This document shows positions 6,486 to 43,332 of a DNA stretch of 45,834 nucleotides, piece by piece. The stretch comes from Desulfobacterales bacterium (GTDB lineage: Bacteria > Desulfobacterota > Desulfobacteria > Desulfobacterales > JAHEIW01). Under the pieces are notes generated by a model. That model was not told the DNA's origin, ran no database searches, and saw nothing but the letters and a program-made list of their open reading frames with translations. How positions within the stretch are numbered: position 1 is the stretch's first letter; every line of letters begins with the position of its first letter. The stretch lies in the NCBI GenBank assembly GCA_050122795.1, contig JASFIG010000001.1, forward strand, positions 1 through 45,834, written 5' to 3'. A program made the position numbers and the translations under genes.

Positions 6486-9263
6486 TTAAGAAGTGGGGGC
6501 GGTCTCGCGGGAGGTGGGCAACGTGAACGAAAAAGTGGATCCTTCGCCGGGCTTGCTTTCGACCCATATGCGTCCGTGGTGGAAATCAATAATGCGCTTG
6601 CTGATGGTCAGGCCAATGCCCGTTCCATAAGGCCGGCCCCGGGCGGGATCTTTTATCTGGTGGAATTTTTCAAATATCTTGTCCTGGTCGCGGCTGCGAA
6701 TGCCAATACCGTTGTCCTGGACATCGACCTGTACCTGCTGTTCGCTGGCTGTCAATCGAATGGTTATTTTACCGCGATCGGAGTCGCAAAATTTGACGGC
6801 ATTTGAGATCAGGTTCACCATGACCTGTACCAGCCGGTCACGATCGCCGGAAATGAGAGGGGGGTTGTCGGTCAATTCATAATCGATGGTGATCTTTTTA
6901 TCTTCAACCAGTTGACGGGTGCTGGCAACCGCGTCCTGAATGACCACTTTGATATCGGTTGCAATGATGACCCAGTCCATCTGGGCGGATTCGATTTTTT
7001 CATAATCCAGCACCTGGTTGATCAGTCGGGTCAACCGCTCGCTTTCTTTAATGATGATACCGGTAAAGTTTTTGTGCTGGTCTGCGCCGATTTCCGGATT
7101 GGTGTGCAGGATTTCAGCCAGGGAGCGGACCGACGTCAGCGGGGTGCGCAACTCGTGCGTAACAGTTGAGATAAATTCGTCTTTAAGGCGGTCCAGATCC
7201 TTGAGGCGGCGGTTGGCTTCCTGAAGCTCGGCGGTGGCCTTCTCAAGTTCCCGGCTGTAGGCAATCACCTGCCGGGTCTCATCGAGGATGTTCAAGACTT
7301 CCTCGATACCCAGTGATTCTTCCTTGACCACTGAGGCGACCATGACCCGGGCGGATGCCGAGCCAATAGCGCCGGCCAGCAATCTTTCAGCGTAGCCGAC
7401 CAGATTGGCATCGGCGGTTACCAGGTAGTTCCAGCTGAGTTTGCGTTTATTGGCGTAGTCGGCCAGCGCCTCATCGGTGCGCTGTCGGCCCAGAAAGCGT
7501 ATCAACAGGGATTTAAGGTCCGGCAGGTGGGCCGTTCCGCGCCAGAAGTGGGATCCAGCAGCTTCACCGGAATATCTGAATACGTCAACGAACAAAGCAG
7601 CCTGGGTATGCTCGATGGTGCGCGGGCGGCTGAATAAAGATACACCGACATACGCAGCGGTGTTCGCCAGCAGACTCCAGAAAACTGCATGGGAAATTTG
7701 ATTGAAGCCCTGCAAGCCAAATAATTCAAACGGCTTGAGCAGCTCAATTCCCAGCGGTCCCTGTTTGACGAAATTTTCAGCGATGATGCCGGCCGGCACC
7801 AGGGAGGGCAGGAAAAGAGTGTAAATCCACACGGCGAATCCGGCCAGCAGGCCGCAGACAGCGCCGCTGCGGGTGCCACCTTTCCAGAAGATGCCGCCCA
7901 GCAGAGCCGGTGCAAACTGGGCAACCGCGACGAAGGAGACCAGTCCCATGGAGACGAGGGCATAGAATTCGCCGATGGTGCGAAAATAGGCGTAACCCAG
8001 CAGCAGAACTAAAACGATGCTGCATCTACGAATGGTCAGCAGCAGCCCGCTGTAGTCCTGTCGCAGGCCCATCTCTTCGATGGGCAGCCGCAGCAGGACC
8101 GGCATGACCAGATCGTTACAGATCATGGTGCTTAACGCAATGGTTTCGACGATGACCATGCCGGTTGCAGCCGACATGCCGCCAAGATAAACGAATAAAG
8201 CGATGAGCTGTTGGCGTTCGGCCATCGGCAGTGTGAGCACAAATGTGTCGGCATCGACACCCCCGTGCGGAAAATGCAATATGCCGCTTAATGCCACCGG
8301 TACGACAAAGACATTAATGGCCAGAAGATACAGCGGGAATAGCCAGATCGCTTTGTTGAGGTGCTCCTCGTTGACGTTTTCGACAACGGTGATCTGAAAT
8401 TGACGCGGTAAAAATATAATCGCCAGCATCGATATCAACAGATGAATGCTCCAGTCCGCGTAACTGAATCCCTGGCCTTTTATCGTCAGGTGTTTATCGA
8501 AAATCAAGGAGCTGAGGCCACCGGATTGCCCCCCAAGGCTATTCTTCGCATCGGTAAATTGGGTGGCTTTTTGAAAAAGGTCTCCCAATCCGTTATGGAT
8601 AAAATAGGTGACAAATATCCCGACGGTCAAAAAGGCGGCCAGCTTGACAATCGATTCAAAAGCGATGGCGGCCACCAGTCCCTCATGTCGCTCGGTTGCG
8701 TCCAGGTGACGGGTGCCGAACAGAATGGCAAATACGGCCAGCAGCAGGGCAATATAAAAGGCCGGGTCGTACATAATCGGAACGTCGGAAAAACTGAATG
8801 AAACTGATACTTCGGGGTATTGGGTGATCAGCAAAAAACCGGTTGAAATCGCTTTAAGCTGCAGTGCAATATAAGGGATGACACCGATAACCGCAATGTT
8901 TGTGGCAAGCCCACCGAGGGTGGTGCTTTTACCGTAGCGGGAGGCAATAAAATCGGCAATGGAGGTAATGCGGTGAACCTTGCTGATACGGATAATTTTC
9001 TGCCAGACGGACCAGCCCAGCAGCGCCATCAGCGTCGGCCCGATGTAAATGGTTAAAAAGCCCAGTCCGCTGCTGACAGCCAGTCCGACGCTGCCGTAAA
9101 AAGTCCAGGCCGTGCAATAAACGGCCATGGAAAGTGCGTAGATGTAGGGGTTGCTGATAATGCTGCGCCCGGCATCAGCGCGTTTGTCACCATAATGGGC
9201 GATGGCGAAAAGCAACCCCATGTAGGCAAATGACACAAAAAGTATGGCCCCGGTTTCCAGCAT
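6486..9263 (-). CDS. Sensor histidine kinase with an N-terminal sodium:solute-symporter (SLC5-like) domain (CbrA/CrbS-type architecture, no receiver domain)
   Basis: 925 aa. The first ~560 aa are polytopic and SSS-like. They are followed by a coiled coil, the H-box FISTVTHELRTPLTSV and HATPase motifs (NLISNAVKF, DNGIGI, GTGIGLTISKRII). Confidence 0.85.
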   Translation of the reverse strand: MLETGAILFVSFAYMGLLFAIAHYGDKRADAGRSIISNPYIYALSMAVYCTAWTFYGSVGLAVSSGLGFLTIYIGPTLMALLGWSVWQKIIRISKVHRITSIADFIASRYGKSTTLGGLATNIAVIGVIPYIALQLKAISTGFLLITQYPEVSVSFSFSDVPIMYDPAFYIALLLAVFAILFGTRHLDATERHEGLVAAIAFESIVKLAAFLTVGIFVTYFIHNGLGDLFQKATQFTDAKNSLGGQSGGLSSLIFDKHLTIKGQGFSYADWSIHLLISMLAIIFLPRQFQITVVENVNEEHLNKAIWLFPLYLLAINVFVVPVALSGILHFPHGGVDADTFVLTLPMAERQQLIALFVYLGGMSAATGMVIVETIALSTMICNDLVMPVLLRLPIEEMGLRQDYSGLLLTIRRCSIVLVLLLGYAYFRTIGEFYALVSMGLVSFVAVAQFAPALLGGIFWKGGTRSGAVCGLLAGFAVWIYTLFLPSLVPAGIIAENFVKQGPLGIELLKPFELFGLQGFNQISHAVFWSLLANTAAYVGVSLFSRPRTIEHTQAALFVDVFRYSGEAAGSHFWRGTAHLPDLKSLLIRFLGRQRTDEALADYANKRKLSWNYLVTADANLVGYAERLLAGAIGSASARVMVASVVKEESLGIEEVLNILDETRQVIAYSRELEKATAELQEANRRLKDLDRLKDEFISTVTHELRTPLTSVRSLAEILHTNPEIGADQHKNFTGIIIKESERLTRLINQVLDYEKIESAQMDWVIIATDIKVVIQDAVASTRQLVEDKKITIDYELTDNPPLISGDRDRLVQVMVNLISNAVKFCDSDRGKITIRLTASEQQVQVDVQDNGIGIRSRDQDKIFEKFHQIKDPARGRPYGTGIGLTISKRIIDFHHGRIWVESKPGEGSTFSFTLPTSRETAPTS

Positions 9264-9266
9264 TGG

Positions 9267-9500
9267 TTATGGCTCGGTTTGTTCAAAGGGTGTTGATGGG
9301 GGTTGCCCGCGGGTTTTTGTCGCCATGGCTGCCAGCAGAATTAAGAAAACCCAGGCGGTAAAGATATACCATATGAGCAGGGGCAAGCCGAAGATACTGG
9401 TTTTGAGGTTGAACAATGACAACAGTGGGTAATTGAAAAGAACGCTACCCAACAGAAATAAACCGACCAAGCGTTTATTTTTTCTGGCTTTGGGTGTCAC
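9267..9500 (-). CDS. Small 2-TM membrane protein immediately upstream of the SSS-kinase (putative symporter small-subunit-like partner)
   Basis: 77 aa with a GTG start preceded by AAGGTG. Two hydrophobic helices (LVGLFLLGSVLFNYPLLSLF and LPLLIWYIFTAWVFLILLAAMA). Its stop is 3 nt before the kinase ATG. Confidence 0.55.
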   Translation of the reverse strand: MTPKARKNKRLVGLFLLGSVLFNYPLLSLFNLKTSIFGLPLLIWYIFTAWVFLILLAAMATKTRGQPPSTPFEQTEP

Positions 9501-9741: not shown

Positions 9742-12072
9742 ATGTCAGACCCCATCCTTACCTTTTTATCAAAGCTGGTTCCGTTTTCAAAGCTGCCGGC
9801 GGAAGAATGCAAGCGAATCGCTGAATCGGCAACCACTGAAAACTACGCCGGCGGACACAATTTGTCCGTGCAGGGACGAACGAAACTGGAGTGCATTTAT
9901 CTTGTAAAAGAAGGTATTTTAGAGCTTTTTTATGAATCCGACGGTGAAAAAGAAATGACCGGCATCATCAAAAAAGGTGAAATTTTCGGGGGCATTTCGA
10001 TCCTGATGAATGCCGGCATATCCGTTCGTTCGGTCAAAGTCGTTGAAGATGTCAGCTTATACGTGGTGCCCAAAAAGGTCTTCCTGGAAGTTGCGACCCA
10101 GTACACTGATTTTTACGAATTTTTTGCCGAGAAGTTCCGCAAGCGAATGCTGAACAAATCCTACGCATCGGTGGTCGCCGCCGGTCAGGCACTCCATTTC
10201 TTGCATGAGCTGGTACCGTTTTCGTTTCTTCCCCAAACGGATCTGGAAAAAATGGCAGCGGCGATTTCTATTATCAACTATCCCAAAGATACCATTCTGT
10301 TTGCCCAGGGGCGCTCCAAAATCGATTATCTGTACATCGTCCAAAAAGGGGCGGCCGAGCGCTACTTTGAAGAGAATGATGAAAAAAACCTGCGTGGCAT
10401 ACTGGGCGAGGGGGATATGTATGGTGGTATTTCCATGCTGGTCAACGATGGCATCGCCATAAGGACGCTGAGGGTGATTGAGGATTCCTATTTCTACATT
10501 TTGCCCAAGGAGCTGTTTTTGGAAGCCTGCCAGAAACACGGCGCCTTTTCAGACTTTTTCACCGATACCTTCGGCAAGCGGATGCTCGATCGGTCCTATG
10601 CCGAAATCATCGCCCATAACCGCAGGCCACGCGAGCAGGTCACTGATTTTTTTAATCGGCCGGTTGAAAGCATCTACAACAAAGATCTGGTTTACTGCGA
10701 TCAGAACATGCCGATCCAGGCAGCCGCTGCGGTGATGAGCGAGCACAACACAAGCTCTATTTTTGTGCGTGAGCACAGAGGTCAATTTGTCGGTGTGGTG
10801 ACCGACAATGACCTCAGAAAAAAGGTGACCGCCACCGGATATGATATCCTGAAGCCGGTTTCCGACATCATGTCATCACCGTTAAGCATGATTTCCGAAA
10901 AAGCGCTTCTTTTCGAGGCCCTGATGGAAATGATGCGAGAAAATATCAAGCACCTGGCGGTCACCAACAGCGATGATAAAGTCGTTGGTGTTATCACCAA
11001 TCGCGATTTGCTCAGAGCCCAGGGGCAGTCGCCATTGTTTATCATCCGCGAGATTATCCAGGCCAAGTTTATCAACCAGATTGTTCAGGTGCGGCAACAG
11101 GTGCCACGGTTAATTGAAACACTGATCAATACCGGCACCAAGGCTCACAATGTAACCGGTCTTTTGACGACGATTTCAGATACCACCCTGGAAAAAATCA
11201 TCGGATTCGCGCTGGACGAATTCGGCCCGCCCCCGGTCAGATTTGTTTTTATGATCCTGGGCAGCGAGGGCCGCAGAGAACAAACGTTAAAGACCGATCA
11301 GGACAATGCCATTATTTTTGAAGATGTGCCTTCCGAATCTCTTAAGAAAGTGACCCAATATTTTCTAAAATTCAGCGAGCGGGTCTGCAACTGGCTGGAT
11401 GAAGCCGGTTACGCCCTGTGCAAGGGCGGGATTATGGCCAAGAATGCCAACTGGTGCCAGCCATTGTCCACCTGGAAAAGCTATTTCAGACGCTGGATTC
11501 ATACGGCCGAGCCCGAAGCGTTGCTGCAGGCCAGTATTTTCTTCGATTTTCGATCCGGATACGGCGATGAGGAATTGATCACCGATCTGCGTCGATACCT
11601 GTTTAAGGAATTGAGCGGCTGGCCGGGATTTTTTCGCCATATGGCTGAAAATGCGATGTATTTCACCCCTCCGATCGGCTTTTTCCGCAATTTTGTGGTG
11701 GAGTCCGAAGGCGAGCACCGGGATGCCTTTGACATCAAGGCCGCCATGCAGCCAATTGTCGACTATGCCAGAATCTATGCTCTCAATCATCAAATCGACG
11801 AGACCAATACGCATGCACGCCTGAATCAACTGCTGGCCCTCAAAAAGATCAGCCCCGAGGAGCATATTGAACTGGAGACAGCCTACAGCTACATGATGCA
11901 ACAACGGTTGGCGCGCCAGGTTGAAGCCATGGTCGAAGAAAACGTAGCGCCGAATAATTATATCAACCCCAAAAAATTGTCACGTATCGAACAAACCATG
12001 CTCAAGGAAATCTTCAAGCGCGTCGAAAAATTCCAGGGCAAACTCAGTTTTGATTTTACCGGGCTGACCTAA
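9742..12072 (+). CDS. Signal-transduction protein: 2x cyclic-nucleotide-binding domain, CBS pair, DUF294 (GlnD-like) nucleotidyltransferase and DUF294_C
   Basis: Start chosen at ATG 9742, with an AGGAGA RBS at 9733-9738. Two cNMP-like repeats (LVPFSKLP...GEIFGGISILMN and LVPFSFLP...GDMYGGISMLVN). Two CBS motifs (...VGVVTDNDLRKKV and ...VGVITNRDLLRAQ). NTase motif ILGSEGRREQTLKTDQDNAIIF. Confidence 0.85.
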   Translation: MSDPILTFLSKLVPFSKLPAEECKRIAESATTENYAGGHNLSVQGRTKLECIYLVKEGILELFYESDGEKEMTGIIKKGEIFGGISILMNAGISVRSVKVVEDVSLYVVPKKVFLEVATQYTDFYEFFAEKFRKRMLNKSYASVVAAGQALHFLHELVPFSFLPQTDLEKMAAAISIINYPKDTILFAQGRSKIDYLYIVQKGAAERYFEENDEKNLRGILGEGDMYGGISMLVNDGIAIRTLRVIEDSYFYILPKELFLEACQKHGAFSDFFTDTFGKRMLDRSYAEIIAHNRRPREQVTDFFNRPVESIYNKDLVYCDQNMPIQAAAAVMSEHNTSSIFVREHRGQFVGVVTDNDLRKKVTATGYDILKPVSDIMSSPLSMISEKALLFEALMEMMRENIKHLAVTNSDDKVVGVITNRDLLRAQGQSPLFIIREIIQAKFINQIVQVRQQVPRLIETLINTGTKAHNVTGLLTTISDTTLEKIIGFALDEFGPPPVRFVFMILGSEGRREQTLKTDQDNAIIFEDVPSESLKKVTQYFLKFSERVCNWLDEAGYALCKGGIMAKNANWCQPLSTWKSYFRRWIHTAEPEALLQASIFFDFRSGYGDEELITDLRRYLFKELSGWPGFFRHMAENAMYFTPPIGFFRNFVVESEGEHRDAFDIKAAMQPIVDYARIYALNHQIDETNTHARLNQLLALKKISPEEHIELETAYSYMMQQRLARQVEAMVEENVAPNNYINPKKLSRIEQTMLKEIFKRVEKFQGKLSFDFTGLT

Positions 12073-18160: not shown

Positions 18161-18493
18161 TTAATGGTCACAGACGTTTGCGCCGGTCATCAGCGTGTTA
18201 TTCAGATAACTATTGACGAGTTCTTCAGGTGGTAGTGCGGGGGCTCCGGTGACAACCTTGATGCCCCTTTCATCGAAAAGGCCAACCGCCCTTTGCCCCA
18301 TTCCACCGGCGATAATAACATCGGCTCCCAATTCGTGGAGCCATCTTGGCAGGATACCGGGCTCATGAGGCGGGGGTACGAATATTTGTTTATTAGCAAT
18401 TTCATTGTCAACAACTTCGATGAGTGCAAACTCCTGGCAGTGTCCAAAATGTGCGGTTAGTTTTCCATTTGCTAATGGTATGGCAAATTTCAT
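18161..18493 (-). CDS. NifX/NifB-like (dinitrogenase FeMo-cofactor-binding fold) family protein
   Basis: 110 aa. Family pattern MKFAIP..G.L..HFGHC..F.L.EV plus GADVIIAGGMGQRAVGLFDERGIKV. AGGAGG RBS. Confidence 0.8.
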   Translation of the reverse strand: MKFAIPLANGKLTAHFGHCQEFALIEVVDNEIANKQIFVPPPHEPGILPRWLHELGADVIIAGGMGQRAVGLFDERGIKVVTGAPALPPEELVNSYLNNTLMTGANVCDH

Positions 18494-18668
18494 GTTTACA
18501 TTCCTCCTGTTTTATCAGTTAACTTCAAGCCATCTCAAAAATAGTAGATTACGCTCAAGAACAAGGCAGAAGTCGACGCAAAAGCGCAGCATACGTGCAG
18601 TATGTGAGCATTTTAAGGAGGCTTCTAACGCAGTTATTGAGTGTCAGATGCATTTTTGAGATAGCTTG

Positions 18669-19535
18669 TTATAAATTTAGGGATTTTGATAAAGTATTCC
18701 AGATTCTTTTGACTGCCTCGCCAGCGCTTGAGTTACCGTTATATTGAAAAATTGTTTTGCCTTGTACCATGGCTTTTGTGAAAACCGGATCAAATGGAAT
18801 CCTTCCCAAGCAGGACAGGCCTTCATCTCGTGCAAAATTTTCAATATCACGGGTTAGGTCCGGATTGAGGTCAAATCTGTTGATGCACACCATAGCCGGC
18901 ACCTTAAAATGATTTGCCAGTTGCACAACCCGTTCCATATCGTGAATGCCTGAAAGCGTGGGTTCTGTCACAATAAGTACAGCGCTGGCACCACCAATGG
19001 AGGCAATTACCGGACACCCGACGCCGGGAGGACCGTCTGTCAGTATAAGACCAAGATGCTTTTCATCTGCCAGTCTTTTGGACTCTTGGCGCACGAGCGT
19101 TACCAGCTTACCGGAATTTTCCTCAGCAATTCCAAGCCTGGCATGAACCATGGGACCGAATCGGGTTTCTGAATAAAACCAATGACCGCACCTATTTTCA
19201 GGGAAATCGATCGCCTTTTCCGGACAAAAATAGACACATACGCCGCAACCCTCGCAGTCGATGGGATTGACTTTAAAATCATCACTGATTGCGCTAAACT
19301 TGCAAAGATCTACGCACCGTCCGCATTCTGTACATTTGTCTTTGTTAATATCGGCCGTGTGACCGGATTTAAATTCGGCACGCATGCATATATACGGGTC
19401 CATAATCAGGTGAAGATCTGCAGCGTCCACATCTGCGTCGCAAAGAACTTTGCTTTCAGCTAATGATGCAAATGATGCAATTAGACTGGTTTTTCCTGTA
19501 CCGCCTTTACCACTGATGACAATCAATTCTTTCAT
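18669..19535 (-). CDS. MinD/ParA-superfamily P-loop ATPase with an inserted 2x[4Fe-4S] ferredoxin domain
   Basis: 288 aa. Deviant Walker A SGKGGTGKTS. CTECGRCVDLCKFSAI and CEGCGVCVYFCPEKAI. Conserved DGPPGVGCPVIAS. Confidence 0.85.
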   Translation of the reverse strand: MKELIVISGKGGTGKTSLIASFASLAESKVLCDADVDAADLHLIMDPYICMRAEFKSGHTADINKDKCTECGRCVDLCKFSAISDDFKVNPIDCEGCGVCVYFCPEKAIDFPENRCGHWFYSETRFGPMVHARLGIAEENSGKLVTLVRQESKRLADEKHLGLILTDGPPGVGCPVIASIGGASAVLIVTEPTLSGIHDMERVVQLANHFKVPAMVCINRFDLNPDLTRDIENFARDEGLSCLGRIPFDPVFTKAMVQGKTIFQYNGNSSAGEAVKRIWNTLSKSLNL

Positions 19536-19551
19536 GTTTGGTGTATCGTTT

Positions 19552-20412
19552 TTAGCATTTGGTGTTTATTGTTTGATGGCTGGAAAGATGCCTAATTTTT
19601 TCATAGAGCGCTAAGAATCTCTCCTTCCATTCCGGCATGACGTCAACCAGCATCTCTCCCCTTGAATAGGCTTCCGCAATCTGCCGATCAAACGGAATTT
19701 CCATAAGAATAGGCAGGCTCTCTCGAAGGGCATATTCTCTTGCTTTGTCATCTCCCAGATCAGACCTGTTGATGATCAACCCCAACGGAATATTAAGTAT
19801 TTGAGCTGCACCCACCGCCAGTTTCAGGTCATATAAACCAAAAGGCGTTGGCTCGGTAACCAGCAGCACAAAGTCGGTATCTTTCATGGATGCAATCACC
19901 GGGCATGAGGTCCCTGGAGGGGCGTCGATGATGGTGAATTTACCAGGATTCTGGTAGGCGCGCACTTTTTTGATCAGCGGCGGCGACATGGCTTCACCAA
20001 CCCGTAATCGGCCATGAATAAACTCGATACCGTTGCTGTGACCCTTTTGAATGACGCCGAGCTCCCGACCACCTTGAATAATCGCCCCTTCAGGACAGAC
20101 CTCCCAGCACCCGCCGCAGCTATGGCAGAGTTCTTCAAATATCAGTACATTTTCATTCAGGACTGCAATGGCCTTAAACTGGCAGATTTCTGCACATTTT
20201 CCACAATAGGTGCACTTGTCTTCATCGACTTCAGGCACCGGCATCGAAACCGTCTCCGAACCCGCAAATGACGGATTGATAAATAGATGTGCGTTGGGTT
20301 CTTCCACATCACAGTCCAGCAGCTGGACATTGGAGCCTATCGATCGGGCCAAATTGGTTGCCACTGTCGTTTTTCCGGTCCCGCCTTTTCCACTGGCAAT
20401 GCTAATGATCAT
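19552..20412 (-). CDS. MinD/ParA-superfamily P-loop ATPase with an inserted 2x[4Fe-4S] ferredoxin domain (paralog of 18669-19535)
   Basis: 286 aa. SGKGGTGKTT. CTYCGKCAEICQFKAI and CHSCGGCWEVCPEGAI. DAPPGTSCPVIAS. Confidence 0.85.
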   Translation of the reverse strand: MIISIASGKGGTGKTTVATNLARSIGSNVQLLDCDVEEPNAHLFINPSFAGSETVSMPVPEVDEDKCTYCGKCAEICQFKAIAVLNENVLIFEELCHSCGGCWEVCPEGAIIQGGRELGVIQKGHSNGIEFIHGRLRVGEAMSPPLIKKVRAYQNPGKFTIIDAPPGTSCPVIASMKDTDFVLLVTEPTPFGLYDLKLAVGAAQILNIPLGLIINRSDLGDDKAREYALRESLPILMEIPFDRQIAEAYSRGEMLVDVMPEWKERFLALYEKIRHLSSHQTINTKC

Positions 20413-20413
20413 T

Positions 20414-21001
20414 TCATAATTTCTCCAAATTATTAATGCGCGTTAGGATACTCTTCATCTGTTGGTTTAATCTTTCGGCCTGCTCTTTGAGGTTTTCCAA
20501 TTCCTGATTTCCGGACGTACTATTTTCTTCTTTATCTTTGACGCTTCGATTTCCGGACGTATTGAAACTTCTACCCATGCCCCCACGGCCTCCCATTCCG
20601 CGTCGAACCCCAGAGCCACGTCCTATCCCGGTTCCTGCTCCCATGCCAAAATGGCTGTCAACTGTTGGTTTATTACTGGGTTTGAGATTGCCGGTGGCAT
20701 ATTTTTTCAAAACGTCTCTTATGGTTCCCTGTTCTCCTGTAAACAGCTCAATTCCGGCTGCCAAAAGCGTATCCACCGCATTTGGGCCACAATTACCGGT
20801 TATGACAACCTCAACCCCTTTGGAGGCCAGAAATTGGGAGGCTTGAATGCCGGCACCACCTCCCATAGCAGCACTTTCGTTTGGGTAAACTTCAAACCGC
20901 ATATCGTCAGAATCAACCACTAAATAATATGCACAACGGCCAAATCGAGGATCGAGCTGGGAATCCATAGTATTTCCGGTGGAGCTAACAGCAATTTTCA
21001 T
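20414..21001 (-). CDS. NifX/NifB-like domain fused to a Gly/Arg-rich, coiled-coil (DUF5320-like) tail
   Basis: 195 aa. N-terminus MKIAVSS...LDPRFGRCAYYLVVD...GVEVVITGNCGPNA. C-terminus GMGAGTGIGRGSGVRRGMGGRGGMGR...LENLKEQAERLNQQMKSILTRINNLEKL. Confidence 0.8.
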   Translation of the reverse strand: MKIAVSSTGNTMDSQLDPRFGRCAYYLVVDSDDMRFEVYPNESAAMGGGAGIQASQFLASKGVEVVITGNCGPNAVDTLLAAGIELFTGEQGTIRDVLKKYATGNLKPSNKPTVDSHFGMGAGTGIGRGSGVRRGMGGRGGMGRSFNTSGNRSVKDKEENSTSGNQELENLKEQAERLNQQMKSILTRINNLEKL

Positions 21002-21081: not shown

Positions 21082-21097
21082 TGCATGAAATATGCCA
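21082..21097 (-). promoter_or_regulatory. sigma54 (-24/-12) promoter for the NifX/MinD cluster
   Basis: The minus strand reads TGGCATATTTCATGCA. GG and GC have the canonical 10-nt spacing. It lies ~80 nt upstream of the ATG at 21001. Confidence 0.6.
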
Positions 21098-21572: not shown

Positions 21573-21836
21573 ATGTATGCATTAATTTATGACGAATTCG
21601 ATCCAGCAAAGCGCGAAAAGGAAGTCATTTCTGTCCACAAGACCAGAGAGACTGCCGAAAAGGCTTTGCAGAAACGGCAGCGTAAGCTGGGCAAAAGGGT
21701 CTGGCAATGCCACACCCGGATCGTGTGGATCTACGACCCGGTTCACAAAGGAGATATCGTTACACCCGACACATTCGATACATGGGCACCCGGTGAGACA
21801 ATTCCAGAAGGAGATCGAGTACCGGATGGGGACTAA
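21573..21836 (+). CDS. Hypothetical 87-aa protein
   Basis: AGGAGG RBS 7 nt upstream. I recognised no family. Confidence 0.5.
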   Translation: MYALIYDEFDPAKREKEVISVHKTRETAEKALQKRQRKLGKRVWQCHTRIVWIYDPVHKGDIVTPDTFDTWAPGETIPEGDRVPDGD

Positions 21837-21878
21837 AAGGGATTTTAGATGGGGGTGCTATTATGGGTTTCTGTTTTT

Positions 21879-23186
21879 CTAAGCGCCATAAACGGCCACA
21901 TCTTTTAGATCATCCTGCAGATATTCGCGTTCATTTTCACCGAGGATGCCTAAGGCCAAACAGATCAGGGTCCACAGGTGAATGACACCGTAGCCACCGC
22001 CGTAGTGCTCGCTAAGCTCATGAATCTGGGCATGGCAATTGTGACAGCCTGCGATGCAATAATCCGCTTTGGTGTTCTGAATTTGAACGTCCTTTAAGCG
22101 CCCAAATTCCAGCCGCTGTTTTTTGAGGCCGGATTGCAGGAATCCGCCGCCGCCACCGCAGCAGTAATTATTGGAGCGGTTGGGGGTCATATCGATGAAA
22201 TTTTCTTCCCCGACAACGGTTTTGACCACAAAGCGTAGATCTTCGGCAATGGGATCGCCGTAGCTTTTGCGTACGATCTGGCAGGGATCCTGAACCGTAA
22301 ACTTGATTTTTAGATCCTTGTTCCAATCCGAATTGACGTTCAGTTTACCTTCACGGATCCATTGCGCATAATATTCATAGATGTTTTTAACCTCGAATTT
22401 GTGGTCGATGTTGAATTTTTTCAGTCCTGCCAGGACTGAGAAGGTCACGTGACCTCACTCGGTATTTAAAAAAATCTGACAACCAAGGTCATCGGCCTGT
22501 TTGGCGGTGGTGCGCACAATGTGTTCCCAGGCGTCATTGTCAGCCAGAAACATGCAGTAATTTTCGCCGCCCCAGCCTTTGGACCCGTAAGTCCAGTCTG
22601 CTCCCGCCAGGTGCAAAATTTTCCACAGGGGCACCATCTCATCGGGTTCTGTCACGGGCTCTCTGGAATTCTGATTTAAAAAGAAATAGGCGCCTTTTTT
22701 GTCAATCGGTGCCTGCATGTCTTTAAAATCCGGCTGGGCTTCCTGGTATTCTTCTAAGACATCTTCGACCACAAAGGTGAAATCCTCCGGAGATGCCCCC
22801 ATGGCACTGCAGCTGTCATTTCTCAGAGCCATATCGCAGGAGCCCAAAATGCCTTTGGGTCTTTCATCTCGTGGCCTGCTGCCGCGCACATTGTAAATCA
22901 GCTGGGGAATATCGATTTTCATCGGACAGACATAGATGCAGCGCTGGCACATGGTGCACATCCAGGGCCAGTCCGATTTAAGAATTTCATCGTCCAGTCC
23001 CAGAGCGGCCATCCGCAAAAATTTACGCGGATCCATACCCGCCAGACCTGTCGCCGGGCACCCGGACGAGCAGGCCCCGCAGGTCAGGCATAGATTCAGA
23101 TTGCCGCCTTCTGGCAAAAGCTGCATGACCTCGTCCATGAAACGGCTTTTCTTTTTGCTGCCCAGTTTGACAACCTCATCAGACAT
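21879..23186 (-). CDS. Selenocysteine-containing Fe-S oxidoreductase (2x[4Fe-4S] plus CCG domains; HdrD/GlpC/DsrK-like), 435 aa with Sec at TGA 22455-22457
   Basis: ORFs 22455-23186 and 21879-22448 share one frame and are joined by a single TGA (...QIFLNTE-U-GHVTFSVLAGL...). N-terminus CLTCGACSSGCP and CTMCQRCIYVCP. C-terminal CCG domain DPCQIV, NYCCGGGGG, AGCHNCHAQI. A 7-bp hairpin lies 15 nt downstream of the TGA. Confidence 0.75.
22421..22439 (-). promoter_or_regulatory. Candidate SECIS hairpin for the Fe-S oxidoreductase UGA
   Basis: The minus strand reads UCAGUCC-UGGCA-GGACUGA (perfect 7-bp stem, 5-nt loop), starting 15 nt after the UGA. Confidence 0.45.
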
Positions 23187-23352
23187 TTGTGGCCTCCTTG
23201 GTTTGCTTTTTGTCGGTTCAACGAAATTGTACGATATACTCTCATGATTGAAAATAAAGCGGTACTGAAACCGCCTTAAAAAATTTTTGTGTGTGTTACA
23301 AATTGCTGCTTTTGAGGTGAAGATGGTACAGATTTTTCATTGATTATTTTAA

Positions 23353-23368
23353 AGCATGGAGTATGCCA
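23353..23368 (-). promoter_or_regulatory. sigma54 promoter for the Sec-containing Fe-S oxidoreductase gene
   Basis: The minus strand reads TGGCATACTCCATGCT. It lies ~165 nt upstream of the ATG at 23186. Confidence 0.6.
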
Positions 23369-23447
23369 TCGTGAGATTCTTGTGAAAAGCTGTTTAAAAT
23401 TAAATGATTACACTCTGTTTTGTCTTTAATTGGATTTGAAATGTATC

Positions 23448-23483
23448 AAAATTTCGAAATTTTTTTCGCAAAATTTCGAAATT
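23448..23483 (-). promoter_or_regulatory. Tripartite palindromic enhancer (UAS) for the 23353 promoter
   Basis: The minus strand reads TTCGAAATTTTGCGAAAAAAATTTCGAAATTTT. It contains a perfect 16-bp palindrome AAAATTTCGAAATTTT (23448-23463). The cores are ~11 bp apart. The nearest core is ~89 bp from the -24 GG. Confidence 0.55.
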
Positions 23484-23570
23484 ATTTGTTATGGTAGACT
23501 GAAATTTTAGTGTCAAAGCTAACTTCGTCGGCACTGTCCAACTTTAACGGCGTCTAAAAATACAAAAGTT

Positions 23571-26255
23571 GTGAACATGACCATCCGCAAAAAAATGATC
23601 CTGATTCTGCTGGCATGTACGATCGTGCCGATGTGTTTTGTCGGTCTGCTTGGATACTATCATGCCAGGAAAAGTCTGGAATCCCTGAGGATAGAGCAGC
23701 TGAGAAGTATTGCCGACCTCAAGGCCGTGCGGATCAATGATTTTTACGTCGATCAGCAAAGACACATCAAGATGGCGCAGCAACGCCCCACTCTAAAAAA
23801 ATATGCCGCTGTTGCGGCAGAATTTGCGAATGACTTTTCCGGCCCGGCCTATGAAACCATCCAGGATGAACTGGACCAAGCACTGCGCATCTACCAGCCG
23901 CTTTATGATTTCAAAAATGTCATTCTGGCAAACCCTGAGAGTCAAATCGTTTACGTTTTGGAGCGATCTTTAAGCTGGCAAATGCTGGGTCAGGCCCTGC
24001 CGGATTTGTGGCGGGAATCATTTCAGGATGCCCCTGACCGAATCCAACTTTCAGATGTTGTGGCAAGTCAAAACCAGGCCGGCAGATTTTCGATGTTCTT
24101 CCTGGCACCGATCCAATCTGATGGCGGGCAGTTGGTCGGGGTGGCTGTGTTTGAATCCGACATGGCGCCGATTTACGATCTCATTCAAGATGCGACCGGG
24201 TTGGGAAATACCGGCGAAACTTTAATTGCCAGAAAAAATGGCGATCAAGCCCTGTTTCTTAATCCCCTTCGTCATGATCCCGATGCAGCCTTAAAAAGAA
24301 AGATTGACTTTGGAGAAAAACAAGCCATCCCTATTCAAGAGGCCCTCAAAGGCAACAATGGAAGTGGAATATCTGTGGACTACCGCGGGCAGGAAGTTAT
24401 CGCAGCCTGGCGCTATATTCCATCACTGGATTGGGGGATGGTGGCCAAGATCGATATTGCGGAGGCCTTTGAACCCGTTACCGCGCTGCGAGATTTTGTT
24501 CTCATCCTTGGCATTGCAGTCATTGTGCTCAGCATCTTTGTTGCATATATGGTTGCCAAGTCCATTTCTGATCCGATTCAAGCCCTGCAGCAAGGCGTGG
24601 TAGAAGTCGGTCGAGGCAATTTAGGCCACAAAGTCGCAACTGACGCCAAGGATGAAATCGGACAGCTGGGGCGAACATTCGACCAAATGACCGAACAGCT
24701 AAAGGCAGTGACGGCTTCAAGGGATGAATTGGATAGAGAAATAAAAAAACGCAGGAAGGTTGAGAAAGAACTCCAAAAAAGTATGAATGAGGTGGGCGAG
24801 CGGATCAAAGAGCTGAATTGCCTTTTTGAGATATCCCGTCTGGTGGAAAAACGAGAGCTGACTTTAGAGGAAATCCTCCAGGGCCTCGTTGATCTCATTC
24901 CACCGGCCTTTCAGTACCCGGAAATAACCTGTGCCGAAATTATGATAGAAAATCAAAAATTCAGCACCGGTAATTTTGAAAAAACTCAATGGATGCTTAG
25001 CCAACATATTGTAATATTTAAAAATACAGTTGGAACTTTAGCTGTTTATTATCTCGATGAAAGACCGCAAAGTGATGAAGGGCCTTTTTTAGAGGAAGAA
25101 AGAAATTTGGTCAATACGATTGCTGAACGAATTGGACGAATTATAGAGCGTAATCGAGCTCAAACAGCTTTAGTCGAAAGCGAGAAACGCTTTCGGCAAT
25201 TAGTGGAACATTCCTTAACGGGCATATCGATCATTCAAGATGGCCACATCGTTTATCAGAACCCTGAACAGGAAAGGCTACTGGGTCCCTTACCGCGGCC
25301 GATCAAATTTGCAGACACGGACTCTATCCACCCGGACGATGTTGAAAAAGTAAATCAATTTTATCAAAGCATCAGCACAGGCAAGTTGCCCATTGGCGTT
25401 ACGGATTTCAGATTTTATCCATCCGGCGGAAAAATCAGCCACAGCAATATGAAATGGGTCCACTGCCAGGCCAGCCGGATCGAATTTCAGGGAAAAGATG
25501 CGATGTTGGTCAATATGATGGATATGACCAAAACCAAAGAGCTGGAATATCTTTTGACCGTCCAGGATAAGATGGCTTCTTTGGGCCGGGTGGCAGCCGG
25601 GATCGCACATGAAATTCGCAACCCGCTTTCAGGAATCAATATCTATCTAAACACGCTTAAAAAGCTTCACCACCGGGAGGGAACGGAAGAAAAGGTTGAG
25701 CAAATATTGAATCAAATTCAATCGGCTTCTATAAAAATTGAATCCGTAATTCGCAGGGTCATGGATTTCGCCAAACCCGGCGAACCGAAGTTGGAGTTAA
25801 TTGATATTAATGAACCCATCGCAGATGCGATCAACCTCACTGCAGTGACAATGCGTAAAAGTCGCATAAAAATTGAGAAGTCATTAGCAAATGACGTGCC
25901 GCGATCGCATGCTGATAGAAATCTAATCGAAGAGATCGTTTTAAACCTGTTGAACAACGCTGTCGAAGCCATGAAAGGCATGGAAGTGAGTAAAAAGATT
26001 GACATTGCATCGTTTACAGAAGGCGGGCACATTATTATCCAGATCTCTGATTCAGGCCCGGGTGTTCCGCTAGAAATCAGGAATAAAATATTCGACCCGT
26101 ATTTTACCACGAAACACGAAGGTACCGGTATCGGTCTGAGTTTATGTCACCGAATCATCAACGATCATGGTGGAACCTTAACTGTAGCGGACAGCCATTT
26201 AGGGGGAGCGGAGTTTCGGGTCGAAATTCCGATTCAAAAAAAAGCGAACACCTAA
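23571..26255 (+). CDS. Multi-domain sensor histidine kinase (TM, periplasmic double-Cache-like domain, TM, HAMP, GAF-like, PAS, HisKA, HATPase)
   Basis: 894 aa. The start may be GTG 23571 or ATG 23577. TM helices at ~aa 9-30 and ~310-330 flank a ~280-aa periplasmic domain. HAMP (DEIGQLGRTFDQMTEQL). PAS (ESEKRFRQLVEHSLTGISIIQDG). NtrB-type H-box AAGIAHEIRNPLSGI. HATPase motifs LLNNAVEA, DSGPGV, GTGIGLSLC. Confidence 0.85.
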   Translation: MNMTIRKKMILILLACTIVPMCFVGLLGYYHARKSLESLRIEQLRSIADLKAVRINDFYVDQQRHIKMAQQRPTLKKYAAVAAEFANDFSGPAYETIQDELDQALRIYQPLYDFKNVILANPESQIVYVLERSLSWQMLGQALPDLWRESFQDAPDRIQLSDVVASQNQAGRFSMFFLAPIQSDGGQLVGVAVFESDMAPIYDLIQDATGLGNTGETLIARKNGDQALFLNPLRHDPDAALKRKIDFGEKQAIPIQEALKGNNGSGISVDYRGQEVIAAWRYIPSLDWGMVAKIDIAEAFEPVTALRDFVLILGIAVIVLSIFVAYMVAKSISDPIQALQQGVVEVGRGNLGHKVATDAKDEIGQLGRTFDQMTEQLKAVTASRDELDREIKKRRKVEKELQKSMNEVGERIKELNCLFEISRLVEKRELTLEEILQGLVDLIPPAFQYPEITCAEIMIENQKFSTGNFEKTQWMLSQHIVIFKNTVGTLAVYYLDERPQSDEGPFLEEERNLVNTIAERIGRIIERNRAQTALVESEKRFRQLVEHSLTGISIIQDGHIVYQNPEQERLLGPLPRPIKFADTDSIHPDDVEKVNQFYQSISTGKLPIGVTDFRFYPSGGKISHSNMKWVHCQASRIEFQGKDAMLVNMMDMTKTKELEYLLTVQDKMASLGRVAAGIAHEIRNPLSGINIYLNTLKKLHHREGTEEKVEQILNQIQSASIKIESVIRRVMDFAKPGEPKLELIDINEPIADAINLTAVTMRKSRIKIEKSLANDVPRSHADRNLIEEIVLNLLNNAVEAMKGMEVSKKIDIASFTEGGHIIIQISDSGPGVPLEIRNKIFDPYFTTKHEGTGIGLSLCHRIINDHGGTLTVADSHLGGAEFRVEIPIQKKANT

Positions 26256-26282
26256 CCGCTTTCCAAAAACCAGGAGTAAGTG

Positions 26283-27671
26283 ATGATTAAATTTTCTATA
26301 TATGTCATAGATGACGAGCAAACCATACGGGATGGCATCACGATGACCCTTGAGGCCGACTATCGTGTAAAATCTTTTTCTGAGGCGGAACCCGCTATCG
26401 ATTCTTTAGAAGAGGATTCCCCGGATCTGATCTTGCTGGATGTGGGGTTACCGGGGATGGATGGAATTGAGGCCCTCCGTCAAATTAAATCATCACATCC
26501 GGATATTCTGGTCATCATGATCACCGCCTATGAAGCAGTCGATACAGTAATATCGGCTATGAAACTGGGTGCCTACGACTATGTGATCAAGCCGCTTCAT
26601 ATGGACGGATTGGAGGTCACCATACGCAATGCCCTGGATTCCATACGACTTAAAAAGGAAATTCAACAGCTCCAGGAAAAGCATCTCCAAGAAAACATCC
26701 CGTGTTTTATCAGTGAAAGCAATGCCATTCAGGATGTGATGGACTTTGTCCAGATGGTGGCCAAAAGCCCGGACACCCCGGTGCTCATCATGGGTGAAAC
26801 CGGCACCGGCAAAGAACTCATTGCCAGCGCCATTCACTATTATAGCCCGAATTTTAAGGCCCCATTTGCCACCGTGAATTGCGCGGCCATCCCCAAAGAT
26901 CTGATTGAAAGTGAGCTATTTGGCTACGAAAAAGGGGCTTTCAGCGGTGCGGGCGCATCCGGCAAAAAAGGCTTAATCGAAGAATCGGCTAACGGCACCT
27001 TGTTTTTGGATGAAATTGGCGATCTTAGCCTTGAAGCCCAGGCCAAGCTGCTGCGGTTTCTCGAGCTCGGTGAGTTTTACAGAGTCGGAGGAACGAAAAA
27101 AAAGCATATTCAAACCCGTGTGATTTCTGCCACCAACAAGGAACTCAGCCAATTGATCGAGGACGGCCTATTTCGAAAAGACCTGTATTTTAGGCTCGGG
27201 GTGATTAAAGTCAAGGTGCCGTCTTTAAACGAGCGGCCAGACGATATTGGGCCCCTAGCAAAATATTTTCTTCAGGAATTCAGCCATAAGTTTGGTAAAA
27301 AATTTACCGGAATCTCCGCTGATGCCGGAAACGCTTTACTGGCTCACAACTGGACCGGTAACGTGAGAGAATTGAAAAATCTCATGGAGGCGGCGGCCCT
27401 GACGGGCAAAGGACCGGAACTCAAATTAGAGGATCTGGGATTGGAATCTGAAAATCTGTATCGTAAGTCGGCTGCAGCCAGAAATGCGGATGGGCTTTCC
27501 CCTCTGCCTGCTGAAGGTCTTGATTTATCCGAGCGGCTTCAAGCTTTTGAAAGGCACTATATCAAACAGGCCCTTAAAATTGCTAAAGGCAATGAGAGCA
27601 AGGCCGCCAAACTGTTAAATATGAATCATCATACATTTCGTTATCGCAGGAAAAAATTGTTTGCTGAATAA
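26283..27671 (+). CDS. sigma54-dependent response regulator (NtrC family: REC, AAA+, Fis-type HTH)
   Basis: REC motifs IYVIDDE and DLILLDVGLPGMDG. AAA+ motifs GETGTGKE, GAFSGA (a GAFTGA variant), LFLDEIG, RVISATN. HTH GNESKAAKLLNMNHHTFRYRRKKL. CAGGAG RBS. Confidence 0.9.
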   Translation: MIKFSIYVIDDEQTIRDGITMTLEADYRVKSFSEAEPAIDSLEEDSPDLILLDVGLPGMDGIEALRQIKSSHPDILVIMITAYEAVDTVISAMKLGAYDYVIKPLHMDGLEVTIRNALDSIRLKKEIQQLQEKHLQENIPCFISESNAIQDVMDFVQMVAKSPDTPVLIMGETGTGKELIASAIHYYSPNFKAPFATVNCAAIPKDLIESELFGYEKGAFSGAGASGKKGLIEESANGTLFLDEIGDLSLEAQAKLLRFLELGEFYRVGGTKKKHIQTRVISATNKELSQLIEDGLFRKDLYFRLGVIKVKVPSLNERPDDIGPLAKYFLQEFSHKFGKKFTGISADAGNALLAHNWTGNVRELKNLMEAAALTGKGPELKLEDLGLESENLYRKSAAARNADGLSPLPAEGLDLSERLQAFERHYIKQALKIAKGNESKAAKLLNMNHHTFRYRRKKLFAE

Positions 27672-27777
27672 CGATATCAATAATCATCATCTTTTTTGTT
27701 GTCTTATTTCCGATATCTTTGGTTTCTTTCATATACCTCTCATATCCCCAAGTCGATCTATAATTTTCCTCAATCGC

Positions 27778-27905: not shown

Positions 27906-27921
27906 TGGCATGTTATATGCT
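27906..27921 (+). promoter_or_regulatory. sigma54 promoter upstream of the universal stress protein gene
   Basis: TGGCATGTTATATGCT has canonical GG/GC spacing. It lies 116 nt upstream of ATG 28037. Confidence 0.55.
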
Positions 27922-28682: not shown

Positions 28683-28698
28683 TGGCACATTTTATGCT
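28683..28698 (+). promoter_or_regulatory. sigma54 promoter upstream of the PFOR gene
   Basis: TGGCACATTTTATGCT, 40 nt upstream of ATG 28738. Confidence 0.6.
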
Positions 28699-35883: not shown

Positions 35884-35899
35884 TGGCATAATTCATGCA
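35884..35899 (+). promoter_or_regulatory. sigma54 promoter for the GAF-kinase / activator operon
   Basis: TGGCATAATTCATGCA. Its -12 box overlaps the first in-frame ATG (35895) of the kinase ORF. Confidence 0.5.
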
Positions 35900-37226
35900 C
35901 AATGATCAATTGCTGAGAAAAATGAATACACTACACACCCAACTGTCTACCGATTCGGAAATCAGTATCGAAACCTTTTACCGGGTTTTCCGGGACATTA
36001 GCACCCTGGTGCACACCGGCAAAAGTTTAAAAGAGGTCCTGGATCGGGTTGTCTGGAAAGCGACGGATCTGCTCACCGCCAAAGGTGCTTTGCTCAGAAT
36101 CCGCAACCTGGAAACACAGCAGTTTGCGGTTGTGGCTGCATTCGGTCTGGGTGAAAGATATCTGAATAAAGGACCCGTTACGAGCGAAAAAATTATTACA
36201 GATGAAATCCGACAAAACCGGGTTTTGATCATCGATGATATCTGGAAAGCCCCCCGGGTCGAATACCCGCAGGCGGCCTGGGATGAAGGCATCCGCATGA
36301 TTTTAGACATCCCCCTGACCGTTGCAGATCAAATCATCGGGCTTTTAAGAATCTATCTGCCCGAGACCAGAAATTTTTCAGAAGATGAACTTGATTTTAT
36401 GGTTTCCATCGGCGAGCAATGCGCCTGTGCGATCAACAAGGCCCGTCTGATCGAAAACCAGAAAGCCCGTTATGACCACCTGGCCATTCAAACCGAGAAG
36501 ATGTCGGCCCTGGGACGCATGGCAGCAGGGATTGCGCATGAAATCAATAATCCGCTGGCGGGTATTTTACTTTTCAGCTCAAATTTGAGAAAAAAAGTGC
36601 CCGCCAAGGGTGACCTGAAAGAAGGGCTGGATGTCATTGTTCGAGAGACGGTGCGCTGCAAAACCATTATCCAGGAGCTTTTGGAATTCTCTCGTGATCG
36701 GGAGCCACGCAAGGAAATGGCGAATCCGAACGCCATCCTGGAAAAGGCCTTGAAAATTTTGGAAAACGAATTTCGCCTGCATCACATTCAGATCGAAAAA
36801 CATCTTGCCGACGAAATGCCTGAAACACTGCTGGATGAAAACCAGATCGAACAGGTCTTTGTGAATCTGTTGCTGAATGCGGTGCAAGCCATTGAAGAAA
36901 AAGGCATCATCACCGTAACCAGCAGCAACGATAAAGGCCGCGAGAAGGCCCTTATCGAAATTACGGATACCGGCAACGGTATTCCTGCGGAGAATTTAGC
37001 CAAAATTTTTGAGCCTTTTTACTCCACCAAACCCAAAGGTACCGGTCTGGGGCTGGCGGTCAGCTATGCTATTATCAAAAACCACCAGGGCGACATCCAT
37101 GCTTTCAGCCAATCCGGACAGGGTGCCCGCCTCGTAATAGAGCTTCCGATTTTAGCCCAATCCGTGCAGCCGCAAAATCGCTGCCGGGACAACAATAATG
37201 CACCAAACAGCGGAGAGGCCTGTTAA
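35895..37226 (+). CDS. Cytoplasmic sensor histidine kinase (GAF, HisKA, HATPase; NtrB/AtoS-like)
   Basis: 443-aa ORF. The true start is possibly ATG 35922, if the overlapping sigma54 promoter is used. GAF-like region aa ~35-185. H-box AAGIAHEINNPLAGI. HATPase motifs LLLNAVQA, DTGNGI, GTGLGLAVS. Confidence 0.8.
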   Translation: MHNDQLLRKMNTLHTQLSTDSEISIETFYRVFRDISTLVHTGKSLKEVLDRVVWKATDLLTAKGALLRIRNLETQQFAVVAAFGLGERYLNKGPVTSEKIITDEIRQNRVLIIDDIWKAPRVEYPQAAWDEGIRMILDIPLTVADQIIGLLRIYLPETRNFSEDELDFMVSIGEQCACAINKARLIENQKARYDHLAIQTEKMSALGRMAAGIAHEINNPLAGILLFSSNLRKKVPAKGDLKEGLDVIVRETVRCKTIIQELLEFSRDREPRKEMANPNAILEKALKILENEFRLHHIQIEKHLADEMPETLLDENQIEQVFVNLLLNAVQAIEEKGIITVTSSNDKGREKALIEITDTGNGIPAENLAKIFEPFYSTKPKGTGLGLAVSYAIIKNHQGDIHAFSQSGQGARLVIELPILAQSVQPQNRCRDNNNAPNSGEAC

Positions 37227-42600: not shown

Positions 42601-42718
42601 GGCACTGTGCAAGGGCTGCGGCGCCTGTTCGGCCGCCTGTCCTTCGGAAGCAGTGGTTTTAAAAGGTTTTAGCCATCAGCAGCTGTACGCCCAGATTAAG
42701 AGCGCCCTGGCTGCCTAA
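39677..42718 (+). CDS. hdrA: Heterodisulfide-reductase subunit A-like flavoprotein (large, two-module HdrA), 1013 aa, selenocysteine at TGA 39860-39862
   Basis: ORFs 39677-39862 and 39992-42718 are in the same frame, with only one TGA between them. The context [17 protein letters not shown] matches the HdrA Cys/Sec site. Two dinucleotide-binding folds ([13 protein letters not shown] and [13 protein letters not shown]). Several 4Fe-4S motifs ([45 protein letters not shown]). CVGSRD is present twice. Confidence 0.85.
39878..39895 (+). promoter_or_regulatory. Candidate SECIS hairpin for the hdrA UGA
   Basis: CUGGUC-GAGGUC-GGCCGG (6-bp stem including 2 G-U pairs), starting 16 nt after the UGA. 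The stem is weak. Confidence 0.3.
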
Positions 42719-43322: not shown

Positions 43323-43332
43323 GGAGATGGAA

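Follow-up and report, generated by a model that had tools for sequence, protein, structure and literature searches.

We analysed a stretch of 45,834 nucleotides (the window) from a Desulfobacterales bacterium of the JAHEIW01 lineage (contig JASFIG010000001.1, assembly GCA_050122795.1), in which a gene on the minus strand, at 21879..23186, is interrupted by an in-frame TGA. The best explanation as a whole, which we consider very probable, is that this single gene codes for a 435-residue selenoprotein of the HdrD/DsrK-HmcF-TmcB type, in which UGA codon 244 would be read as selenocysteine (Sec) through a selenocysteine insertion sequence (SECIS). The list of open reading frames (ORFs) gives two pieces in the same frame, one of 243 aa (22455..23186, minus strand, TGA included) and one of 189 aa (21879..22448, minus strand), between which lie just the TGA at 22457..22455 and two codons ahead of the GTG that serves as mechanical start (22448). 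Joined across this one TGA, the coding sequence has 435 codons and a TAG stop, and the read-through product of 435 aa runs ...DDLGCQIFLNTE-U-GHVTFSVL... (FLNTE-U-GH), with codon 244 (22455..22457, minus strand) in the motif N-T-E-U-G-H. A preliminary description of this DNA had claimed that the TGA alone separates the two pieces, which is what the sequence contains, and that they are one Fe-S oxidoreductase of the CCG-domain kind in which the UGA stands for Sec; the common frame, the single TGA and homologues with Cys at this position agree with that claim.

The gene has a Shine-Dalgarno sequence, AGGAGG, at 23193..23198 (minus strand; read from the sequence), 6 nt before the ATG at 23186, and this element is kept in L018, a related JAHEIW01 metagenome-assembled genome. 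Five independently assembled JGI metagenomes contain the gene, including its TGA, either identical or with 1 base different, and since the TGA is common to these assemblies it is not an assembly or sequencing error. All public copies of the gene are annotated as two genes with truncated protein products, and the two-ORF mis-annotation of the selenoprotein gene is shared by at least 120 genomes.

Cysteine and selenocysteine forms of the protein

A search with the joined protein returned 2595 homologues, the best 120 of which were aligned as Cys forms. These best 120 are full length (412-532 aa, median 435) and 57-76% identical. As the preliminary description had anticipated, orthologues of the Cys-containing form carry Cys at the UGA column, in 120 out of 120 cases and always inside an invariant E-C-G-H that is preceded by N/S-T. 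At the level of sequence, this is the classical signature of a Sec/Cys pair.

The Sec form was traced with a degenerate DNA pattern, N-T-E-TGA-G-H-x-x-[FY]-x-V-x-x-G, scanned in one genome per GTDB species. The pattern is present in at least 120 Desulfobacterota species-level genomes, and every match listed is a true homologue with TGA at the column (0 false positives). The taxa among the matches listed are Desulfobacterales, Desulfobulbales, Desulfovibrionaceae, Desulfarculaceae and Desulfatibacillaceae, and some carriers are available in culture, among them Desulfopila aestuarii DSM 18488, Desulfoprunum benzoelyticum DSM 28570 and Desulfoluna spongiiphila AA1.

One ENA contig (L007) holds a Cys-form and a Sec-form paralogue in tandem, at 8001-9320 and 9822-11140, of which the second is annotated only as a 243-aa fragment. 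This pair is reminiscent of the Se-dependent isoenzyme pairs found in methanogens.

A conserved SECIS-type hairpin follows the UGA

A SECIS-type hairpin lies at 22421..22439 (minus strand), starting 15 nt after the UGA, as the preliminary description had noted. RNAfold lengthens the stem from the 7 bp described there to 8 bp (UCAGUCCU/AGGACUGA; 22439-22432 paired with 22428-22421) round a 3-nt loop, GGC (22431-22429). The 60-nt stretch with the hairpin has a minimum free energy of −18.4 kcal/mol (z = −3.0), and 2 of 200 shuffled sequences fold as well.

We then compared 120 distinct Sec-form sequences, with positions numbered from the U of the UGA. The 8-pair helix, formed by positions 19-26 with 30-37, is paired in 94.7% of cells, and falls to 13-41% pairing when the partner is shifted by 1-3 columns. 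Compensatory exchanges occur in the helix: at pair 26/30, 74 sequences have G-C and 36 have U-A; at pair 19/37, 44 have U-A and 32 have G-C; and pair 21/35 alternates between A-U and G-U. The covariation score was reached by none of 500 shuffles. The third-codon positions 24, 27, 33 and 36 of the stem-loop have an entropy of 0-0.3 bits, versus 1-1.8 bits at most third positions outside the hairpin. The loop base G27 is invariant (120/120), which agrees with the conserved apical-loop G mentioned for bacterial SECIS elements (PMC1794560). Taken across the 120 Sec forms, these sequence data support the view that the hairpin behaves as a bacterial SECIS.

The hairpin also leaves a trace in the protein. 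The residue at +8 is Trp in 112 of the 120 Cys forms and never Trp in the Sec forms, which have Arg (CGG) or Leu (CTG) instead, because C25 must pair with G31. Judged from these alignments, the RNA stem thus constrains the protein sequence at this position. The three Cys-form genes that were checked at the DNA level do not have the hairpin in this form.

Four Cys forms (P0001, P0002, P0021 and P0108) have Arg and not Trp at +8, and two of them are the closest Cys relatives of the window protein. Since Arg is the residue that the SECIS stem forces at this position, their sequences look like those of Sec-to-Cys revertants with a fossil SECIS-shaped peptide. Directly after the UGA, at 22441-22456 (minus strand), GGUCACGUGACC is a perfect palindrome that folds as a second small hairpin; it is probably incidental, since other Sec forms do not conserve it.

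Other selenoprotein genes in the window

Three further genes of the window, all on the plus strand and all of canonical selenoprotein families, have an in-frame TGA at the known Sec position. An HdrA/HdrL-like flavoprotein of 1013 aa (39677-42718) has TGA at 39860-39862 in a CxxU motif, the site at which HdrA is known to carry Sec; just the downstream part, of 908 aa, is in the ORF list. It is directly followed by an MvhD/FlpD homologue (42795-43322; PF02662, E 1.4e-50) with TGA at 42999-43001 in GILVGG-U-HLGDCHY. The gene of a formate dehydrogenase alpha subunit, FdhA, begins at 44178 and continues past the window end (45834), with TGA at 44583-44585 in the canonical HCARL-U-HSSTV. A hairpin is predicted after each of the three TGA codons, with G-rich loops in the HdrA and FdhA genes and a less clear case in MvhD; that of the HdrA gene has an AGGU loop and begins 15 nt after the UGA. 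These genes, with TGA at canonical Sec sites, are indirect sequence evidence that the organism decodes Sec. A gene for a Fer4 protein (43315-44142) stands ahead of FdhA, and its product may be FdhB-like.

Domain architecture and conserved cysteines

The protein has no membrane domain along its 435 aa, and its Pfam architecture, a 4Fe-4S dicluster domain (Fer4_8) plus a single CCG match, is of the COG0247 type. The HdrC-like ferredoxin domain (residues 30-91; 22914..23099, minus strand) contains two CxxCxxCxxxC motifs, matches Fer4_8 with E 5.8e-10 and the HdrC chains of the PDB with E 1e-12 to 1e-16, and would hold two cubane [4Fe-4S] clusters. The CCG domain at residues 297-388 (22023..22298, minus strand; Pfam CCG, E 2.2e-9) is complete, as the preliminary description had it, with DPC302, NYC342C343GGGGG and C381HNC384H; it aligns with the C-terminal CCG domain of HdrB (5odc_B) and is predicted to be a noncubane [4Fe-4S] site. 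Between the two lies a degenerate first CCG-like module (about residues 160-290; 22317..22709, minus strand), which has no Pfam match and keeps C211 (ENYC) and U244 (TEUGH), the three other ligand positions being lost.

Cys conservation was counted over the 120 Cys forms and those 91 Sec forms that are complete. All eight Cys of the ferredoxin domain, C117, C211 and position 244 (Cys or Sec) are invariant, while C302, C342, C343, C381 and C384 are invariant or all but, with C343 gapped in 1 of the 120 Cys forms. C236 is Cys in 82 of the 91 Sec forms and 116 of the 120 Cys forms, the others having A, V, T or S there. The preliminary description was right that the first module has lost most of its Cys and retains C211 and U244; its count of a single remaining Cys overlooked the invariant C117 and the nearly invariant C236.

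PDB sequence profiles align only the ferredoxin part, with the N-terminus on HdrC, and the second CCG domain, with residues 281-416 on the C-terminal CCG domain of HdrB; module 1 has diverged too far. The fold was examined in an AlphaFold model built on the 76%-identical Cys form P0001 (mean predicted local distance difference test score, pLDDT, 82.7; predicted template modelling score, pTM, 0.85). In the model, module 1 repeats the strand-helix pattern of module 2, each with a strand followed by a Cys/Sec at the N-terminus of a helix. The best Foldseek match is the mycobacterial EtfD (9ojn; E 1.5e-10, query TM-score, TMq, 0.65), and whole HdrB chains are matched over about 296 aligned columns with TM scores of 0.62-0.68 on the HdrB length. 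The whole-HdrB match together with the pattern of the model indicates that residues ~160-290 are a structurally retained, Cys-depleted first CCG module.

An alignment of module 1 with module 2 by hhalign pairs C211 with C342 and C244 with C381; it is non-significant (E 0.19) and serves as a consistency check only. The secondary-structure register of the model, this alignment and the statement on the GECGH motif in PMC10861901 support a predicted correspondence of C211 to the first Cys of 'CCG', of U244 to the first Cys of 'CxxC' and of H246 to H385, in line with the placing of the UGA at the CxxC end of the degenerate module in the preliminary description.

Possible role of the selenocysteine

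DsrK, HmcF and TmcB have only one CCG motif, and are described with a single noncubane cluster and two cubanes (PMC10861901). The Cys of their T/GECGH motif is strictly conserved, and was interpreted as a leftover of the missing cluster that is probably catalytic (PMC10861901). The window protein has T-E-U-G-H, which puts Sec exactly on the proposed catalytic Cys of the DsrK-type proteins. By sequence comparison, Sec thus probably occupies the ligand position of the lost cluster that these proteins keep and that is thought to be catalytic. The suggestion of the preliminary description, a redox-active chalcogen site in place of the lost cluster, fits this published proposal. The same paper makes no mention of selenocysteine (PMC10861901), and the searchable literature gave no paper that joins selenocysteine, DsrK and HdrD. 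The Sec would mark this Cys position of DsrK, HmcF and TmcB as chemically active, and would offer a naturally hyper-reactive variant for the study of disulfide and trisulfide reduction by a single noncubane [4Fe-4S] cluster.

A possible mechanism can be outlined as follows. Translation would not stop at UGA-244, since the 8-bp hairpin 15 nt downstream would act as a SECIS, recruiting SelB and Sec-tRNA for insertion of Sec. The product would be a cytoplasmic protein, the first CCG module of which would have lost its noncubane cluster. Electrons would enter through the two cubane clusters and pass to the noncubane cluster of module 2, beside which the selenolate of U244 would attack a disulfide or polysulfide substrate to form a Se-S intermediate. 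This intermediate would possibly be resolved by C211 or by the cluster, and two one-electron steps would then release the products. A selenenyl-sulfide bond specifically with C211 can be proposed from the sequence, but it is just as possible that the Sec acts on the noncubane cluster next to it or is a ligand of that cluster. By analogy with EtfD, U244-G-H246 would be located next to the catalytic noncubane cluster.

A candidate promoter and the divergent two-component pair

Upstream of the reductase gene, about 165 nt from the ATG, there is a sigma-54-type promoter candidate, TGGCATACTCCATGCT (GG-N10-GC; 23353..23368, minus strand), a pattern match with two mismatches in which GG and GC are at canonical spacing. 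About 80-120 bp further upstream, a candidate enhancer (23447..23487, strand-neutral; repeats D1 and I1) is formed by the 12-bp palindrome AATTTCGAAATT, which occurs twice within 23450-23483, at a distance of 22 bp. Pfam matches identify a dCache-HAMP-PAS histidine kinase at 23571-26255 (plus strand), divergent from the reductase gene, and an NtrC-type sigma-54 activator (REC-AAA-HTH) at 26280-27671 (plus strand), which makes a divergent pair with the kinase (23571..27671). The L018 genome is syntenic over 21844-27672 with 80% nucleotide identity; the identity is 93% for the protein and 89% for the intergenic region, where the promoter and both palindromes are fully conserved. In L096, homologous kinase/regulator DNA also stands beside the reductase gene. 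Strict sigma-54-type sites were found upstream of the orthologue in 6 of 105 other loci (L018 included) on the sense strand, and in 0 on the antisense strand. A sigma-54 promoter with its enhancer is thus a plausible reading of these sequences, and transcription would most likely start from this promoter, activated by the divergent dCache kinase and NtrC-type regulator.

The window has four more intergenic sigma-54-like sites, TGGCAY-N5-WTGCW, at 21082-21097 (minus strand), 27906-27921 (plus), 28683-28698 (plus) and 35884-35899 (plus), which stand upstream of, and in the right orientation for, respectively, a cluster of NifX-like and MinD-Fer4 genes, a Usp gene, a large PFOR gene and a GAF histidine kinase. 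NtrC-type activators are encoded at two places, 26280-27671 and 37226-38653.

Gene neighbourhood of the Sec and Cys forms

The window gene is monocistronic, beside the sigma-54 two-component system, with the HdrA-MvhD genes 17 kb away. Its neighbours are the kinase/regulator pair and an 87-aa ORF, and no conserved operon partner was found for the window lineage. In other Sec-form loci a neighbourhood does recur: among the matches listed (L009-L128), MetF (PF02219) and/or MetV (PF12225) adjoin the gene on the same strand in 28 of 120. Three gene orders are seen, hdrD-metF, hdrD-metV-metF and metV-metF-(RR)-hdrD (RR, response regulator), with examples in L041 (421-1293, minus strand), L069 (5665-7406, plus strand) and L035 (1519-3116, plus strand), and the link is present in the isolates Desulfoprunum benzoelyticum and Desulfopila aestuarii. 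This adjacency suggests a possible functional link to methylene-tetrahydrofolate (methylene-THF) reductase. No methylene-THF reductase was found in the window, and its lineage lacks the MetF/MetV link. The Cys homologues have varied contexts, which in Desulfonema magnum contain Etf genes and in Desulfosarcina benzoyl-CoA-reductase-like genes.

It is possible, if rather doubtful when both parts are taken jointly, that the widespread Cys-to-Sec exchange at T/GECGH is independent evidence for a redox nucleophile in all single-cluster DsrK-type reductases, and that the soluble Sec/Cys family is an uncharacterised partner of methylene-THF reductase.

Downstream of the selenoprotein gene and on the same strand is a cluster (18161-21001, minus strand) coding for two Nitro_FeMo-Co (NifX-like) proteins, one of them a fusion with DUF5320, and two ATPases of the MinD/ParA type that have inserted 4Fe-4S motifs; the 87-aa ORF (21573-21836) lies between, in convergent orientation.

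Alternative explanations

The stop codon itself is all that speaks for a gene in decay in which the TGA would be a nonsense mutation or an error of assembly. The same codon occurs in the five assemblies and in at least 120 genomes, and the 189 codons after it are intact and strongly conserved, which rules this explanation out and leaves it with next to no probability. A reassignment of UGA throughout the genetic code is rejected as well, because TGA is the ordinary stop of 3 of the 24 well-supported genes in the window, so that the code is standard. The UGA could also be a true stop, followed by a restart at GTG 22448, such that an HdrC-like protein of 243 aa and an HdrB-like protein of 189 aa would assemble non-covalently. 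HdrC and HdrB are indeed separate subunits in methanogens, the GTG lies 6 nt past the TGA with GAGG ahead of it, and gene callers give two genes in every public copy. However, the break falls inside the HdrB-like part, on an invariant Cys, and not at the HdrC/HdrB boundary near residue 120, and it would delete the proposed catalytic residue. Moreover, the GTG varies, with GAA, GTC or ATC in its place in most Sec forms, and the downstream hairpin is conserved at synonymous sites. We therefore regard the split gene as highly improbable, and consider both the split-gene and the pseudogene readings effectively excluded.

For a protein with Sec at position 244, a different question is whether this residue permanently ligates a metal centre that would remain in the degenerate module, such as a Fe-S cluster, small or linear, bound to C117, C211, C236 and U244. 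These are four conserved Cys/Sec positions outside the canonical motifs, and FdhA and [NiFeSe] hydrogenase are precedents for Sec as a ligand of metal. In addition, EtfD, the best structural match, keeps a four-Cys linear [3Fe-4S] cluster (D1) in the first of its CCG domains, among the ligands of which are the equivalents of C211 and U244 (PMC13083937). Yet only 2 of the 4 EtfD D1 ligand positions are retained here, C236 is replaced in 9 of the 91 Sec forms and 4 of the 120 Cys forms, and DsrK and TmcB, which share the motif, are those described with no cluster beyond the single noncubane and the two cubanes (PMC10861901). A permanent ligand role is thus unlikely, and a redox-active Sec is preferred.

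Several observations weigh against the interpretation as a Sec-decoded, sigma-54-dependent reductase, or against parts of it. Neither selA nor selB, selC or selD lies in the 45.8-kb window, in which ARAGORN found no tRNA. Rfam, run on the whole window at the gathering threshold and permissively on 22350-22500, returned no SECIS or other credible family, and the weak microRNA-like matches in 22350-22500 merely reflect the hairpin. Sec insertion and the 48-kDa product are predictions from sequence, and the catalytic mechanism and the substrate are inference only. The mapping of U244 onto the CxxC motif is based on the hhalign result with E 0.19, the secondary-structure register and a paper, and not on structural superposition. 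Finally, sigma-54-like matches are not in excess window-wide (34, versus 29.7 in shuffles). Since this count is not above chance, the promoter call rests on position and conservation; of the earlier claim that the gene has its own sigma54 promoter and enhancer, the candidate sites and their conservation in L018 stand, while the pattern count gives it no backing.

Comparison with known systems

A selenoprotein of this kind has been catalogued before as Fe-S oxidoreductase-like (GlpC) (PMC13188914, PMC1794560). Among its high-confidence predicted selenoproteins, the 2026 review lists a Fe-S oxidoreductase-like protein (PTHR43551) that has the motif UGH and one Sec, citing the 2004 prokaryotic selenoproteome paper (PMC13188914). 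That family comprises HdrD/GlpC-type Fe-S proteins of Deltaproteobacteria with one Sec in U-G-H, predicted from a SECIS and a Sec/Cys pair, for which Cys-containing homologues exist. The window gene likewise has UGA in a Cys column, U-G-H, a SECIS-type stem of 8 bp and the COG0247-type architecture and, compared by description and sequence features, is another member of it. The family is therefore already known and not a new discovery. The gain is a refinement, with its added value in the coincidence of the Sec with the proposed catalytic Cys of DsrK-type proteins, the comparative definition of the SECIS and the recurrent MetF/MetV neighbourhood. As for GlpC itself, the TIGR03379 score is 25 bits, the cut-off being 280, and neither glpA nor glpB is present in the window.

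The best NCBIfam scores are with HmcF (163 bits, cut-off 750), TmcB (155, cut-off 735) and DsrK (111, cut-off 400). Being far under the equivalog cut-offs, they indicate a paralogous relative, and not HmcF, TmcB or DsrK. These three are the cytoplasmic catalytic subunits of the Hmc, Tmc and DsrMKJOP complexes, and the substrate of DsrK is the DsrC trisulfide. The window protein shares with them two cubane motifs, one complete CXnCCGXnCXXC motif and a T-E-U-G-H that is T-E-C-G-H in the Cys forms. In contrast, it has Sec instead of Cys, and a membrane cytochrome b partner (DsrM, HmcE or TmcC) is missing beside its gene; no such partner was found either among the recurrent neighbours of the 120 listed Sec-form loci.

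The HdrB/HdrC and HdrD proteins of methanogens (5odc, 8rvu, 7bkb) are similar in the HdrC-like N-terminus, the HdrB-like two-lobed fold and the complete C-terminal CCG motif. In HdrB and HdrD both CCG motifs are complete and there are two noncubane clusters, whereas here the first module lacks three of its five Cys and carries Sec. EtfD (9ojn) also combines a ferredoxin domain with two CCG domains, the first of which is modified, and its C-x-H element, with a His that contacts the noncubane cluster of the second domain, is comparable to U244-G-H246; in C581-x-H583-C584 of EtfD the His extends to the adjacent noncubane cluster and ligates it (PMC13083937). EtfD alone has five transmembrane helices with heme b, the linear [3Fe-4S] cluster and a long disordered tail, and it contains no Sec. 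The window protein, without a membrane domain and with just two of the four linear-cluster ligand positions, resembles EtfD in fold only. Another parallel by description is with Desulfobacterium autotrophicum HRM2, in which a soluble, Sec-containing HdrD4 was reported together with Sec hdrA/L-mvhD-fdhA loci (PMC2702500). HdrD4, like the protein described here, is a soluble protein of a Desulfobacterales sulfate reducer that is homologous to HdrC and HdrB, and the HdrA, MvhD and FdhA region of the window resembles the hdrA/L-mvhD-fdhB-fdhA loci of that organism.

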